In this document: positions 8,827 to 12,766 of the stretch, piece by piece
Layout: the number at the start of each line of letters is the position of its first letter
Numbering within the stretch: position 1 is the stretch's first letter
Origin: Candidatus Thorarchaeota archaeon SMTZ1-45
GTDB lineage: Archaea; Asgardarchaeota; Thorarchaeia; Thorarchaeales; Thorarchaeaceae
Reading direction: 5' to 3'
Assembly: GCA_001563335.1 (NCBI GenBank)
Contig: LRSL01000047.1
Location: forward strand, 1 to 51,565
Length of the DNA stretch: 51,565 bases
Position numbers and translations under genes: made by a program
Notes under the pieces: generated by a model
Told to the model about the DNA's origin: nothing
Seen by the model: the letters and a program-made list of their open reading frames with translations, nothing else
Databases searched by the model: none

Positions 8827-9519
8827 ATGAGAGCCGTACTCAAAATCGGAGGTTCACTCCTCTATGATGATGACGGTCAAGTTCGCATTGACCGACTAAG
8901 AGAGTACGCTGAATCAATCAAGTCCTTAGTCAAAGATGGGCATTCATTGGTTGTTGTGGTTGGTGGTGGAAAACCAGCACGCATCTTCATTAATGCAGCT
9001 AGAGAGCTTGGTGCAAACGAGGCTCAGTGTGACTGGCTTGGAATTAAACTGGCTAGGAATAATGCTGAGTTGCTCTGTGCAGCTCTTGGTGATTATGCAT
9101 ACCCTAAGATAATCGACGACTATGATGAACTAGAAGTAGCAGTCAATCTTAGCAAGGTCGTATTAATGGGGGGTATGGTGCCAGGTCAATCAACTAATGC
9201 AGTAGCTGCAGCTTCTGCAGAACTGATACATGCAGACATGCTATTCAATGCAACTAATGTTGATGGTGTTTATGACCGCAACCCAGAGGAAAAGGGTGCT
9301 AAAAAACTGGACAGTGTTGATGTCTCTAAGTTGAGAGAGATTTTGTCCTCTGAGGGTACCAAAGCAGGACAATACAACCTATTTGATCCAGTCGCAATTG
9401 GGATTGTTGAACGATCACATATTCCTACTGTGATATTCAACGGGAACAACACAAAGAACCTAGAAAAGGCTTTCAACAAAGAGAAGATTGGAACCCAAAT
9501 TATGCACAACACGAAATGA
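8827..9519 (+). CDS. pyrH: UMP kinase
   Basis: VLKIGGS, VVGGGKPAR, GGMVPGQSTNAVAA, ATNVDGVY (archaeal type). Confidence 0.96.
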   Translation: MRAVLKIGGSLLYDDDGQVRIDRLREYAESIKSLVKDGHSLVVVVGGGKPARIFINAARELGANEAQCDWLGIKLARNNAELLCAALGDYAYPKIIDDYDELEVAVNLSKVVLMGGMVPGQSTNAVAAASAELIHADMLFNATNVDGVYDRNPEEKGAKKLDSVDVSKLREILSSEGTKAGQYNLFDPVAIGIVERSHIPTVIFNGNNTKNLEKAFNKEKIGTQIMHNTK

Positions 9520-9541
9520 TGAAACAAGAGGCGAGAATAAG

Positions 9542-9832
9542 TTGAAGAGGTTGCTCGAGAAAGTATTTGCATCCCGCGCACAGACACGCGTTGTCCAACA
9601 CTTCCTAGACCGTCCAAAAGAGTTCTTTAATCTGAGCCGATTAGCAAAGGAAACTGGACTTGCTCATTCAACAATTCACCGCGTGATGCAACCTCTTGTT
9701 GACATGGGGCTTGTGAAAGAGATTAAAGCTGGGCAACAGATTCGGTTGTTCATTCTTGAAACAGAGGATGACCGGTCTAAGATAATATCAGAGTTCTATG
9801 CTAAAATCAAACCTCATCTTGAAACCAGCTGA
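9542..9832 (+). CDS. Winged-helix transcriptional regulator
   Basis: FNLSRLAKETGLAHSTIHRVM HTH; probable TTG start. Confidence 0.8.
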   Translation: MKRLLEKVFASRAQTRVVQHFLDRPKEFFNLSRLAKETGLAHSTIHRVMQPLVDMGLVKEIKAGQQIRLFILETEDDRSKIISEFYAKIKPHLETS

Positions 9833-9907: not shown

Positions 9908-10027
9908 GCCGAGATAGCCAAGCCCGGTCAACGGCGATGGACTCAAGATCAATCACAAGTCGCCAGACTCTGAGGAGAAATCCATTCTCGTAGGAGTTCA
10001 TGGGTTCGAATCCCATTCTCGGCACCA
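9908..10027 (+). tRNA. tRNA-Leu(CAA) with 32-nt intron at 37/38 (9948-9979)
   Basis: GCCGAGA/TCTCGGC acceptor, ATGGA-CT-CAA-G[intron]A-TCCAT, long variable arm, encoded CCA, near-canonical BHB. Confidence 0.95.
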
Positions 10028-10069: not shown

Positions 10070-10528
10070 CTATTTTCTTATGCGAACAATCTTAGCACCG
10101 GTATCCTTCACGATTTCTTCAGATTTGATTCTAAGGAGATGTCGATCAGTCCCTCCACCACCAATCACCTCAGTCATTTCCATAACTCTTGGATCAATGA
10201 GGACTATAGCGTTCTTGATGGCTATGGGGGGTGTCCCGCCAACCTCGAATCCCGTCAAGTCAAATGCCTCCTCAGGTGATGCAAGTTTAGGTGGTAGAAT
10301 CCCAATTGCTTTTCCAATCCTTTTGGAGCTTGCACGATCAGTTCCATTAACAATGGCGAGAACCACTTCATCCTTAGCTAGAAATACCACAGTCTTGATG
10401 AATCGCTTAGGTGGGACACCTAGTTCATTGGAAGCAGCTTCAACGGAATGAACACGACCCCTCATCGTGAGTATCTCAGCCTCGATGTTGTTTTCATCGA
10501 TGTAGTTCTGTAAATCATTGTTGTCCAA
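10070..10528 (-). CDS. YbaK/EbsC (ProX-like) aminoacyl-tRNA deacylase family
   Basis: FIKTVVF, TGFEVGGTPP, GGGG motifs. Confidence 0.9.
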   Translation of the reverse strand: MDNNDLQNYIDENNIEAEILTMRGRVHSVEAASNELGVPPKRFIKTVVFLAKDEVVLAIVNGTDRASSKRIGKAIGILPPKLASPEEAFDLTGFEVGGTPPIAIKNAIVLIDPRVMEMTEVIGGGGTDRHLLRIKSEEIVKDTGAKIVRIRK

Positions 10529-10587
10529 AATTTATCACTTCCATTTGCCTTGATATGCAACGTTGTTTGAGAAAAAGAGTTTGGTAC

Positions 10588-10704
10588 TCACGTTGCTTCC
10601 AACGCGAGTACTTCGGCTAGAGAGAGTTTGTTACAATCTCTGGTGATACTATTCTGAACCTCATGATCTGAGGACGAGTCTGCGGATTTATCAGAGTGGA
10701 TCAT
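10588..10704 (-). CDS. Small peptide 3 (38 aa, MIHSDKSADSSSDHEVQNSITRDCNKLSLAEVLALEAT)
   Basis: ATG 6 nt after the peptide 2 stop, with GAGGT SD-like motif. Confidence 0.45.
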   Translation of the reverse strand: MIHSDKSADSSSDHEVQNSITRDCNKLSLAEVLALEAT

Positions 10705-10710
10705 CTGAGT

Positions 10711-10824
10711 CTACCTCAGGAAGGATGTCCTGTAAACTTCAGTCCGTACTTGTGATTTCGATCTATGAAGTTCCTTCAAGTCCGGTTCAATACTGAGTTC
10801 TTTCCTAAGTTTCGCGAGTGCCAT
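10711..10824 (-). CDS. Small peptide 2 (37 aa, MALAKLRKELSIEPDLKELHRSKSQVRTEVYRTSFLR)
   Basis: GGAGGT SD-like motif upstream; ATG 4 nt after the peptide 1 stop. Confidence 0.65.
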   Translation of the reverse strand: MALAKLRKELSIEPDLKELHRSKSQVRTEVYRTSFLR

Positions 10825-10828
10825 TGGA

Positions 10829-10933
10829 TTACCTCCGGTAGGTGTATGCATAGGCTAGAGCATCAGTAGACATGACCTTCATCTTATTGTTCTTCAGCAC
10901 AGATGTGTTTAGTGAGTTAGTTGCTAGAGCCAT
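10829..10933 (-). CDS. Small peptide 1 (34 aa, MALATNSLNTSVLKNNKMKVMSTDALAYAYTYRR)
   Basis: First ATG downstream of a TATATATA box (~10966-10973). Confidence 0.6.
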   Translation of the reverse strand: MALATNSLNTSVLKNNKMKVMSTDALAYAYTYRR

Positions 10934-11003
10934 GATATTTCACAAGAGATACTGCTCAGATTTAGTATATATACCGAAGCCACGTATAGGGGTCACAGGA
11001 CGA

Positions 11004-11020
11004 AGTCACATGATGTGACT
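11004..11020. promoter_or_regulatory. Perfect palindrome AGTCACAT-G-ATGTGACT (putative transcription-factor site)
   Basis: About 30 bp upstream of the peptide-operon TATA box; extra GTCACA half-site at 10992. Confidence 0.5.
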
Positions 11021-11050
11021 ATCAAAAAGGGTCAAGAGTATCAGTTCAGT

Positions 11051-12766
11051 CTATTTCTTAATGATTCTCATCAGTTTCTTCAAGGGGTAAGTATTGATGA
11101 CATCGTCAGGAGTCAACCATCCACGGCGAGCTTGGTATACTCCAAATCGCATGTAATCAAGCTCTGAAATTCTATGTGCATCCGTATTTATTGCAATTTT
11201 CAGACCAATCTTAGTTGCAGCACGTAGATTACCAGCGTTTAGATCTAGTCTTTGTGGATGGGCATTTAGCTCCATGATTACGTTGTGCTTCTGAGCTGTT
11301 TCAAACACGCTCTCCAAATTAATTTCAAATTCAGACCTTTTCCCGATTAGACGACCGGTAGGATGTCCGAGGATGTGGACATACTTATTCTCCAGAGCAG
11401 TACAAACTCTTTCTGTCATGATTTCCTTTGTGTCTTTCATCCTACTATGAATCGAACCAGTTACAATATCTAGTTGGGATAGAACATCATCTTCTATATC
11501 TAGACCACCATCTGCTAGTATGTCTACTTCTGCACCTTTGAGTATCTTCATCTTCCAGCGGCCCGATGCGTTAAGCTCATCAATCTCATCAATCCGTTTC
11601 AATAGACGACTCTCATCCATACCATTTGCGATAGTGAGACTCTGGGTATGGTCTGATACACAATAGTACTCGTACTCAAGCGCTTGAGCTGTGTTCAGCA
11701 TCTCTTCGATTGTATTTTTGCCATCAGATTGGTCTGTGTGACTATGAAGGTCTCCACGAATGTCGCTCATCGAAACTAAAGTGGGAATCTTTTTTTTCTG
11801 AGCTGCTTCAATCTCGCCTTTGTCCTCTCTCAGTTCTGGGGGTATCCATTGAAGTCCAAGTGCCTTATAGACACCCTCTTCATCATCACCGGCGATTTTC
11901 TTCTCATTCTTGAAAAGACCATATTCATTCAGGCGCAATCCCATCTTTTGAGCGATTGACCGCAATTTGACATTGTGGTCCACACTCCCGGTAAAATATT
12001 GAAGCCCAGCTCCAAAACTTTCACTCGGTAATACTCTGAGGTCTACTTGTAGACCAGATTCCAGTCGTATTGATGACTTTGTAGGACCTTGAGCGATGAC
12101 GGTGGCCACACCTTCAAATTTTACAAACTCCTCCATCACAGTTTTAGGGTCTGTTGCATCTAACAAGAAGTCAATATCACCAATGGTTTCTCTTCGGCGC
12201 CGAGTGGAACCAGCGATGGTGAGTTGTTTTACGACTTTTAGTTTGCGTAGCTTCTTTTCAATTTGCTCAGCCACAGAGATCGCATCAGAGAGAAGAGTTC
12301 GCTCTAATCCAGCGCGTACAATCTGAATGCCCTCAATAATCTGCTTCTGTGTTTTTTCGCCAAGGCCCGGTAGACTAGAGAGCTTCCCTTGGTTGGCGGC
12401 TTTTTCAAGAGATTCAATGTCTGTCACACCTAATTTCTCATACACAAGTTTGATTGTCTTTGGACCAACACCAGGTATCGAGTCCAATTCAAGAACATTA
12501 ACTGGAACACGTGTTCTAAGCTCATTAAGAATTCTCACTTCACCAGTTTCAAGATATGTTTTGATAACATCTGCAAGACTCTTACCAATACCTGGAATGT
12601 CCATCAGAGCCCCTCGTTTTGCCACAGATTCAACATCCTCCCCGAGGGATGTTATAGACCTCACGCCACGATAATATGCAAGGTGCTTAAACCGGTCCTT
12701 GCCCTCAATTTCCAAAAGTAGACCAATTTCTTGTAGAACGCGAGCCACTTCAGCATTTCTAGTCAT
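11051..12766 (-). CDS. polX: DNA polymerase X with C-terminal PHP domain
   Basis: HhH motifs, AGSTRR..GDIDF, QVDLR, QYFTGS; PHP motifs DLHSHT, DH and NTDAH. Confidence 0.96.
   Translation of the reverse strand: MTRNAEVARVLQEIGLLLEIEGKDRFKHLAYYRGVRSITSLGEDVESVAKRGALMDIPGIGKSLADVIKTYLETGEVRILNELRTRVPVNVLELDSIPGVGPKTIKLVYEKLGVTDIESLEKAANQGKLSSLPGLGEKTQKQIIEGIQIVRAGLERTLLSDAISVAEQIEKKLRKLKVVKQLTIAGSTRRRRETIGDIDFLLDATDPKTVMEEFVKFEGVATVIAQGPTKSSIRLESGLQVDLRVLPSESFGAGLQYFTGSVDHNVKLRSIAQKMGLRLNEYGLFKNEKKIAGDDEEGVYKALGLQWIPPELREDKGEIEAAQKKKIPTLVSMSDIRGDLHSHTDQSDGKNTIEEMLNTAQALEYEYYCVSDHTQSLTIANGMDESRLLKRIDEIDELNASGRWKMKILKGAEVDILADGGLDIEDDVLSQLDIVTGSIHSRMKDTKEIMTERVCTALENKYVHILGHPTGRLIGKRSEFEINLESVFETAQKHNVIMELNAHPQRLDLNAGNLRAATKIGLKIAINTDAHRISELDYMRFGVYQARRGWLTPDDVINTYPLKKLMRIIKK

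Follow-up and report, generated by a model that had tools for sequence, protein, structure and literature searches.

A putative operon of three microproteins with a palindromic operator, conserved across the class Thorarchaeia

What, if anything, is encoded in the 522 nucleotides (nt) that separate a tRNA_edit/YbaK-like gene (10070-10528) from a PolX gene (11051-12766) in Candidatus Thorarchaeota archaeon SMTZ1-45? The stretch analyzed, here called the window, comprises the 51,565 nt of contig LRSL01000047.1 (assembly GCA_001563335.1); the names of the two neighboring genes derive from Pfam. An initial annotation, made from the letters of the window, had proposed that three small peptides are encoded there in a hidden operon, equipped with a promoter and a palindromic operator of its own. 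Comparative tests support that proposal. The gap holds a unit (10569-11020, minus strand) whose three open reading frames (ORFs), pep1, pep2, and pep3, very probably form a coding operon. From 5' to 3', the unit consists of a 17-base pair (bp) palindrome, a third half-site, a TATA box, pep1, a Shine-Dalgarno (SD) motif, pep2, a second SD motif, pep3, a 12-bp hairpin, and a T-tract.

Are the three ORFs translated genes or accidents of an intergenic region? Comparison among related genomes is what shows the genes and their selection, as well as the operator, hairpin, and fusions described below. Pooled Nei-Gojobori estimates over four syntenic species (a small sample: three to four sequences of ~35 codons) give ratios of nonsynonymous to synonymous substitution (dN/dS) of 0.38 for pep1, 0.23 for pep2, and 0.37 for pep3. 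Read in the two shifted frames, the same stretches give 1.10 and 1.47 (pep1), 0.70 and 0.99 (pep2), and 0.88 and 1.84 (pep3), and contain 14 and 7, 2 and 14, and 6 and 16 stop codons, respectively. The initial annotation had named codon-level conservation as a test, and the outcome indicates purifying selection on all three ORFs (0.23-0.38 in frame versus 0.70-1.84 when shifted). In the comparison of each ORF, the third codon position is the most variable. Moreover, indels among the loci are multiples of three, and the peptide motif is retained at loci without detectable nucleotide similarity. ORF and SD spacing, the other feature singled out for comparison, is likewise kept in relatives. The cassette occupies the same place between PolX and YbaK in three related genomes (G013, G004, and G005); pep2 orthologues are found in G013 and G004, and pep3 is conserved in the syntenic loci of all three.

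The arrangement of the ORFs is compact. As first described, three minus-strand ATG ORFs of 34, 37, and 38 amino acids tile the gap, with 4 nt between pep1 and pep2, 6 nt between pep2 and pep3, and SD-like motifs in the Arg-stop ends of the upstream cistrons. The first cistron, pep1 (10829..10933, minus strand; 34 amino acids, MALATNSLNTSVLKNNKMKVMSTDALAYAYTYRR), has no SD motif. Its final Arg codons and stop provide the SD sequence GGAGGT (10831..10836, minus strand) for pep2 (10711..10824, minus strand; 37 amino acids counted from MALAK, MALAKLRKELSIEPDLKELHRSKSQVRTEVYRTSFLR), an EPDL-subtype member of the same family as pep1; an upstream ATG at 10851 allows an alternative version of 46 amino acids. 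The SD-like GAGGT (10713..10717, minus strand) overlaps the Arg-TAG end of pep2 and serves pep3 (10588..10704, minus strand; 38 amino acids, MIHSDKSADSSSDHEVQNSITRDCNKLSLAEVLALEAT), an acidic peptide that resumes the pep2 frame after one stop codon. SD-like pentamers precede 13.7% of the long ORFs in this genome, versus 2.6% at a control position. Gaps shorter than 10 nt, SD motifs within the upstream cistrons, a single promoter, and a single hairpin with T-tract together point to a translationally coupled polycistronic operon.

The peptides belong to a larger family. A DNA search of the assembly (3.54 Mb, 88% complete) found three further copies of the promoter with pep1 (81-88% identity; contigs C86, C92, and C83), along with two copies of a pep2 segment (75-81% identity; contigs C30 and C80). 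In the four-copy pep1 alignment, the ~110 nt 5' of the ATG are more conserved than the ORF itself, and similarity ends at the stop codon; paralogues and orthologues of pep1 stay open by way of 3-nt indels. A peptide profile run over 111,149 stop-to-stop frames (18-120 codons) retrieved 13 members at E<0.01, distributed over eight loci. Two weaker members, with a TTG start or standing third in a row, bring the total to 13-15 copies. All follow one pattern: MA(L/F)xK, a variable basic middle, and (S/T)T(D/E)A(L/I)xxAYxYR(R). The shared profile and common pattern support the earlier suggestion that pep1 and pep2 are paralogous.

How far does this family extend? Within the genus, the profile matched all 24 genomes searched, each with 5-12 open matches; it matched none of the 16 genomes that represent other families in the phylum. 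A profile built from 57 sequences (E<=1e-5) detects the family in 62 of the 87 class genomes, representing 11 of 17 genera and including all 27 other genus genomes as well as this one. These class counts are a floor, because a search guided by the palindrome recovers divergent peptides in genera with no profile match: in three such genera, the palindrome leads to peptides of the family pattern at +87, and one of the three also has a pep3-like end, GEILNLEAT. A search of 1.84 billion representative proteins with the profile brought up 37 matches, all of 29-72 amino acids; those looked up come from metagenome assemblies and carry neither a name nor a Pfam domain.

Nothing in the reference collections names these peptides. 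Pfam and NCBIfam searches returned no match better than E = 0.09 for 13 family peptides, and nothing better than E = 0.26 for pep3 and the fused forms described below. Profile searches of the PDB with two family alignments (A2 and A3) gave no match at E<=1, and the ESM Atlas gave no usable match. A survey of openly accessible literature on Asgard small proteins and on modified peptides of Thorarchaeota found no description of such peptides. In the available part of a preprint on deep-sea small proteins (10.64898/2025.12.15.694180), Asgard appears only in the reference list; its supplements could contain such ORFs.

What drives and controls the unit? All three signals noted initially, a TATA-like box, a perfect 17-bp palindrome, and a downstream tract, are in place. 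The palindrome AGTCACATCATGTGACT (11004..11020), a perfect 7-N3-7 repeat of the form AGTCACA-N3-TGTGACT, lies 87 nt 5' of the pep1 ATG and is the candidate operator. Between it and the TATA box lies the third half-site, TGTGACC (10991..10997, minus strand). The TATA box TATATATA (10966-10973) together with a sequence resembling the B recognition element (BRE), GTGGCTTCGG, spans 10966..10981 on the minus strand. By the usual archaeal spacing from TATA box to start, the transcript would begin about 10-12 nt before the ATG.

Conservation of this region is strict. Type A loci, those with a first peptide of the MAL(T/A)TN type, number 26 without duplicates, and in every one the palindrome starts exactly at -87 from the pep1 ATG. 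(These 26 loci correspond to 28 rows, two of them duplicates; 24 rows carry the palindrome unchanged and four carry it with a single mismatch.) It occurs in none of nine rows representing other cassette types. The palindrome arms are constant and the 3-nt spacer is variable. Column identity climbs from 35-50% to 90-100% at -88, and stays high through the half-site, the BRE and TATA box, the presumed start, and the first ~45 coding nt. Columns of the third half-site are 90-100% identical across the 26 loci, and the half-site aligns in paralogues and orthologues alike. The sequence GGCTTCGGTATATATAC is identical in the four paralogous promoters of this genome, and is 90-100% conserved over the 26 loci. 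A 16-mer, AGTCACANNNTGTGAC, is present in 28 of 28 genus genomes; the same pattern written backward gave one hit in total.

The genome-wide scan recommended at the outset gave a clear answer: the palindrome marks the paralogous promoters and, beyond them, a single additional conserved site. Four exact copies exist in the genome, each before a pep1 paralogue. Across the class, the palindrome is found in 76 of 87 genomes, with several hundred hits versus about 13 for the control. We judge it likely that the palindrome is a functional operator bound by a factor. In two paralogous cassettes (G000:C92:9880-10030 and G000:C83:800-940, where G000 denotes this genome), additional GGTCACA/TGTGACC half-sites stand after pep1 and before the next peptide gene; possibly they form a further operator or promoter inside the unit.

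The one other near-perfect palindrome in the genome suggests a candidate for this factor. It lies on contig C1, in a similar promoter, 5' of a gene for a 417-amino acid bactofilin-like protein. This site (AGTCACAAATTGTGAC) stands about 30 nt after a gene for a 145-amino acid HTH_45 winged-helix protein (G000:C1:21237-21671), and is followed in order by TGTGGCC, TATATAC, and the bactofilin-like gene (whole region G000:C1:20878-21671, minus strand; locus L013, 4878-6672). Spacing from palindrome to TATA box is about one helical turn shorter than in the cassette promoter. In 79 of the 87 class genomes there is just one copy of the HTH_45 gene; among the matches listed, it lies within 51 nt of the palindrome in at least 15 genomes. 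The arrangement of HTH_45 gene, palindrome, and bactofilin-like gene recurs in another genus, and the palindrome before a bactofilin-like gene is found even in a second family of the order. The HTH_45 protein is the best candidate for the operator factor, an assignment that we make tentatively.

The 3' end of the unit contains a second conserved nucleic acid element. The last eight pep3 codons, the TGA, and the next four bases can fold into a 12-bp RNA hairpin with a GAAG loop (10584..10611, minus strand; folding free energy -19.3 kcal/mol, z = -3.27), placing the pep3 stop codon (10588-10590) inside the 3' arm. Over 16 loci, 85.4% of cells are paired, versus 23-47% for controls in which the pairing was slid along the alignment. 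Four pairs show change on both sides (12 cells), and none of 500 shuffles reached the covariation score. Some of the compensating changes are synonymous codon changes, and one accompanies a switch from TGA to TAG. This stretch thus appears to be read twice: as the pep3 C-terminus, and as an RNA structure enclosing the stop codon.

Behind the hairpin lies the T-rich tract CTCTTTTTCTC (10569..10579, minus strand). Most of the 16 aligned loci have a run of 5-7 T residues 3' of the hairpin, beginning about 8 nt past the stem. A scan of 10300-11300 for terminators of bacterial type (GC-rich hairpin with U-run within 0-2 nt) found no site, because the T-run starts 8 nt after the stem. Archaeal transcription stops at oligo-T, and the tract is probably such a stop.

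The relationship between pep2 and pep3 raises a separate question: are these two proteins or one? All 16 pep3 genes in the loci examined end in (D/E)(E/D)VLxxEAT (EVLALEAT in the window). They are found in only some cassettes, with 16 genes among about 37 cassette rows; this genome has three (contigs C47 and C15, and a divergent one at C86) and many copies of pep1 and pep2. In 15 of the 16 loci, pep3 directly continues the pep2 frame past the pep2 stop, and 13 of the 16 show the same junction: AGG-stop, exactly two codons, and then an in-frame ATG or GTG start. Five of the 37 database matches are single pep2-pep3 chains of ~70 amino acids, with Gln at the stop position and the same pair of codons after it. 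Twelve protein clusters are fused forms or related to them, and ten sequences closely akin to one of the fusions came from the same look-up. Because the two are fused into a single chain in some relatives, pep2 and pep3 may well work together, and we consider this partnership probable. Prediction of a complex between pep2 (alignment A6) and pep3 (A5) scored 0.01 against a mark of 0.32, and counts neither way.

What kind of peptides are these? Mean net charge is +5.2 for pep1, +5.4 for pep2, and -1.9 for pep3. An AlphaFold2 model of pep1 shows a single helix over residues 6-32, with a mean predicted local distance difference test score (pLDDT) of 73 that is highest over the conserved C-terminus. 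In a natural fusion, modeled at pLDDT 60, helices are predicted only at STDAI..AYF and LTEVLALE, joined by a disordered linker. The pattern A-L/I-x-x-A-Y would line one face of a helix with small and aromatic residues, as a docking surface for a partner would be expected to show.

Two known docking motifs were compared with the peptide ends. The PIP box, which interacts with PCNA, has the consensus Q-x-x-(L/I/M)-x-x-(F/Y)-(F/Y), usually near the C-terminus. Inspection of alignments A2 and A6 found no Gln, and the aromatic residues stand at +4/+6 or +4/+5 from L/I rather than +3/+4. The HbYX motif is a hydrophobic-Tyr-any residue tail at the C-terminus of proteasome activators (PMC11142061, PMC10349882); such a tail would suit the role of protease adaptor, one of those suggested in the initial annotation. 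A minority of the family resembles it: 11 of 57 peptides, and 8 of the 18 pep2 peptides that precede a pep3, end in L/I/M-Y-R, the pattern that docks in the pockets of the 20S alpha-ring. However, the window peptides end in YRR (pep1), FLR (pep2), and EAT (pep3), the penultimate residue is not Tyr in most members, and in the pep2-pep3 fusions the tail is buried.

Taken together, the sequence features suggest the following account, in which we infer that the unit is transcribed, which factor binds it, and that the peptides form a complex on a target. The unit would be an autonomous, vertically inherited three-cistron microprotein operon, one of about five such cassettes in the genome. Its strong BRE/TATA promoter would be governed by a factor, with HTH_45 as the best candidate, bound to the palindrome and the third half-site, TGTGACC. 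The mRNA would be almost leaderless, with pep1 starting without an SD; the pep2 and pep3 starts would be coupled through the SDs in the Arg-stop ends of the preceding cistrons; and the transcript would end at the T-tract behind the hairpin that holds the pep3 stop codon. The three peptides would then most likely be made together on one signal. As basic paralogues, pep1 and pep2 would present the C-terminal (S/T)T(D/E)A(L/I)xxAYxYRR segment as an amphipathic helix. Acidic pep3, with a short hydrophobic C-terminal helix, would act with pep2. Presumably, the peptides form a small intracellular complex on an anionic or grooved target: nucleic acid, the ribosome, or a protein, for example the bactofilin-like polymer that would be co-regulated. 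We give about even weight to the idea that the peptides form a co-regulated complex inside the cell and bind a target there, and see the scales as similarly level on whether the peptides are intracellular binders rather than precursors or toxins.

Several other explanations deserve consideration. Small tandem ORFs from a scattered, multi-copy family could be precursors of ribosomally synthesized and post-translationally modified peptides (RiPPs) or of a peptide-derived cofactor. The Tyr-rich AYxYRR core would be matured by a remotely encoded enzyme, as for scattered multi-copy precursors that share one maturase. The strictly conserved aromatic C-terminal motif recalls, by analogy, crosslink motifs, and one radical S-adenosylmethionine (SAM) gene lies 4.7 kb from the C86 cassette. 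However, the initial remark that no modifying enzyme is adjacent is borne out at wider range: neither a maturase (radical SAM/SPASM, YcaO, LanM, ATP-grasp, P450, or similar), a peptidase, nor an ATP-binding cassette (ABC) exporter lies next to any of the eight loci in this genome (78 ORFs within about 6 kb) or of 20 loci in relatives (48 ORFs within 1.5 kb). Moreover, none of 57 pep1 and pep2 sequences contains Cys; both ends of the peptides are conserved and the middle is variable, unlike a leader with a variable core; and the pep2-pep3 fusion would bury the supposed core within a chain. A RiPP origin is thus unlikely. Cationic pep1 and pep2, predicted to be helical and encoded in tandem with anionic pep3, might instead be leaderless antimicrobial or signaling peptides resembling archaeocins, with pep3 as a neutralizing or immunity partner and export by a nearby transporter; an MFS_3 "secretion effector" transporter does lie directly 3' at one of the five cassette positions. 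That proposal seems quite improbable, given that the peptides are very hydrophilic, without a membrane-active hydrophobic face, signal, or leader; that no ABC transporter or immunity gene is nearby and the MFS_3 gene is found at only that position; and that the sequences are strongly conserved across the class rather than diversified. Opposite charges, translational coupling, an operator-controlled promoter, and multiple copies would also suit a toxin-antitoxin-like addiction module, in which basic pep1, pep2, or both are harmful and acidic pep3 is the antidote. But many cassettes contain pep1 and pep2 without pep3, positions are syntenic and vertically inherited rather than mobile, the operator seems tied to a separate host regulator that also controls the bactofilin-like gene, and joining toxin and antidote in one chain would be unusual. 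An addiction module therefore appears more improbable still.

Two further possibilities concern how the unit is read. Natural pep2-pep3 fusions leave room for read-through of the pep2 stop codon, and the main product could be the read-through fusion, with separate pep2 and pep3 as minor forms, leaving a two-protein operon in which a leaky stop acts as a switch. The in-frame position of pep3 past a single stop in 15 of 16 loci favors this, as do the relatives that encode a fused chain with a CAG-type Gln at the stop. So does the choice of stop codon: of the 15 in-frame pep2 stops (10711-10713 in the window), 13 are TAG, one TAA, and one TGA, compared with a baseline of 36% TAG among long ORFs of the genome. 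Yet all three stop codons do occur at the site, TAG-A is the commonest normal TAG context in the genome, and a well-spaced SD and start are kept in 13 of 16 loci; moreover, shared ancestry of the loci means that these counts overstate the signal. Recoding of the TAG as pyrrolysine was rejected: in this 88%-complete genome, the best PylS_Cterm match scores 19.6 bits (cut-off 178) and the best PylD match 19.8 (cut-off 150). Read-through as the principal route is rather improbable. Finally, the conserved element might be a non-coding RNA or regulatory DNA with incidental ORFs, or a feature of the opposite strand. Here the promoter and first 45 coding nt are 90-100% identical, synonymous sites included, and the hairpin covaries. 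The first ~15 pep1 codons (10889-10933, minus strand) are 80-100% identical in the 26 loci, third positions among them; the remainder of pep1 shows free synonymous change. On the plus strand, a C/D-box small RNA resembling SNORD50 was matched at 10635-10701 (E = 0.008). But that match reaches 25.7 bits against a gathering threshold of 42, and its region is the least conserved part of the cassette, and of pep3, in orthologues. An antisense ORF of 48 amino acids (10872-11018, plus strand) retains its ATG in only 2 of 26 loci and has stops in many; both candidates were rejected. The in-frame dN/dS values and open frames, set against the shifted frames, and retention of the peptide motif without nucleotide similarity make a purely non-coding explanation very improbable.

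For the account of three co-produced, intracellular peptides under one operator, the following points weigh on the other side. In G002, PolX directly adjoins YbaK and the cassette is absent, so it is dispensable there. Strict identity at the start of pep1 implies that some RNA- or DNA-level constraint overlaps the beginning of the ORF. Likewise, because synonymous changes in the pep3 C-terminus are compensatory, the hairpin alone can explain part of the conservation there. The structural models are of low-to-moderate confidence (pLDDT 60 and 73) and show no compact fold. None of the analyses singles out one target for the peptides. The HTH_45 assignment is based on the adjacency of its gene to the palindrome, and in at least 12 genus genomes no exact palindrome appears on the HTH_45 contig among the matches listed. 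Finally, all of the support is comparative: the related genomes are not independent, and the 30 loci drawn from relatives are the best-scoring rather than a random sample.

Where do the cassettes reside? About five positions are fixed and syntenic across species: after a desulfoferrodoxin gene; after PolX, as in the window and at least six other species; before the MFS_3 "secretion effector" transporter; in divergent orientation to a peroxiredoxin gene, where the first peptide of the variant cassette is of another kind; and near a methyltransferase gene, where a variant cassette has the palindrome GTTTG-N5-CAAAC beside its TATA box. Two of these five neighbors are oxidative-stress genes, an association that is suggestive at most. 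Only 5 of the 27 other genomes of the genus have a YbaK orthologue, and another gene intervenes in two of those; the idea that the ORFs are leader peptides for ybaK was dropped on these grounds. Presence of the cassette varies at one site. Mobile or viral cargo was rejected as an explanation: five syntenic contexts are shared, viral contigs contain no hit to the promoter pattern, and the empty site in G002 shows no visible flanking duplication. Rather, the cassettes appear to be old, vertically inherited paralogues.

Other cassettes in the genome carry different control elements. A variant three-peptide cassette (G000:C15:677-1006, locus L011, minus strand; also at L022, L029, and L033) encodes MYRMNL.., MELDK.., and MSKNNK..DVLLWEAT; its putative operator, GTTTG-N5-CAAAC, directly abuts the TATA box. 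The peroxiredoxin-divergent variant (G000:C76:16260-16484, locus L012; also at L017, L020, L032, and L038) begins with a conserved ORF of 35 amino acids, MAD..NESFAKRG..RTLDSLYYD(F/Y)ARIK, followed by a MALAKTD-type peptide, and has a TGTAAT-N3-ATTACA palindrome near the TATA region. A solitary pep2-type gene with a TTG start (G000:C30:6760-7060, locus L009) has five copies of TTGGCA/TGCCAA around its TATA box. This gene is divergent from one whose 364-amino acid product has two winged-helix domains, and a distinct regulator-operator pair may exist here.

How does the unit compare with characterized systems? Archaeal and bacterial small-protein regulators provide one parallel: those of Methanosarcina mazei bind glutamine synthetase or GlnK/AmtB. 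Like such regulators, the cassette peptides are shorter than 50 amino acids, unannotated, without an enzyme domain, presumably induced from a regulated promoter of their own, and proposed to bind a larger partner. Unlike the M. mazei type, they are encoded in a three-cistron operon, in 13-15 copies, throughout a class, and have no sequence relation to described families. The alpha/beta small acid-soluble proteins (SASPs) of Bacillus are a small, abundant, DNA-binding multigene family of 60-70 amino acids, monocistronic and under one dedicated regulator. The cassettes resemble them in that paralogues are scattered, promoters are so nearly identical as to suggest a single regulon, and the mRNA would end in a stem-loop; they differ in being polycistronic and in encoding peptides of about 30 amino acids, for which nucleic acid binding is guessed from charge. 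The leaderless aureocin A70 operon encodes four cationic, hydrophobic peptides of ~30 amino acids, accompanied by transporter and immunity genes. Tandem cistrons for leaderless cationic peptides of ~30 amino acids are common to both systems, whereas the cassette peptides are hydrophilic and without transporter or immunity genes nearby. Prochlorosins, scattered multi-copy RiPP precursors served by one remote enzyme, share with the cassettes many small paralogous ORFs across a genome with a conserved segment. Unlike prochlorosins, the cassette peptides have no Cys, no leader with hypervariable core, and no candidate maturase near their loci.

In kind, then, the locus is a known one: a translationally coupled small-protein operon with a dedicated operator. 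The family, its class-wide spread in Asgard archaea, the stop codon in a conserved hairpin, the split-or-fused pep2-pep3 pair, and the operator shared with a bactofilin-like gene are new. ORFs of this size are almost never annotated in Asgard metagenome-assembled genomes, and here a whole class carries conserved, multi-copy, regulated proteins of ~30 amino acids that no database names. Experimental handles are at hand: a 17-bp operator with a candidate regulator, peptides that can be synthesized chemically, and a fusion that points to pep2-pep3 pairing. If the bactofilin-like link is true, the microproteins would be tied to the sort of cytoskeleton-like machinery for which Asgard archaea are studied. 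Carried further, HTH_45 could govern an ancient Thorarchaeia-wide regulon that includes the bactofilin-like gene, with the three microproteins as stoichiometric modulators of the polymer or of its cell-shape or stress program, and with pep2-pep3 made as two chains or as one by leaky termination. This extension is speculative and improbable as a whole; if the HTH_45 regulon reading were true, the archaea most closely related to eukaryotes would possess a microprotein system that is new and specific to their lineage.

Other features of the window and genome were noted in passing. Between a winged helix-turn-helix gene (9488-9832) and the YbaK-like gene, Rfam calls a tRNA at 9908-10024 (plus strand; 117 nt, 45.6 bits), and ARAGORN gives none; the length suggests an intron-containing archaeal tRNA. 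At the contig edge (1-703, minus strand), cmscan matches the 5' 682 positions of archaeal small-subunit (SSU) rRNA, the remainder being unassembled. A search of the whole assembly with the same SSU rRNA Rfam family returned no match, and so disagrees with cmscan. Profilin and WD40 genes are present elsewhere in the genome, and fit an Asgard archaeon.

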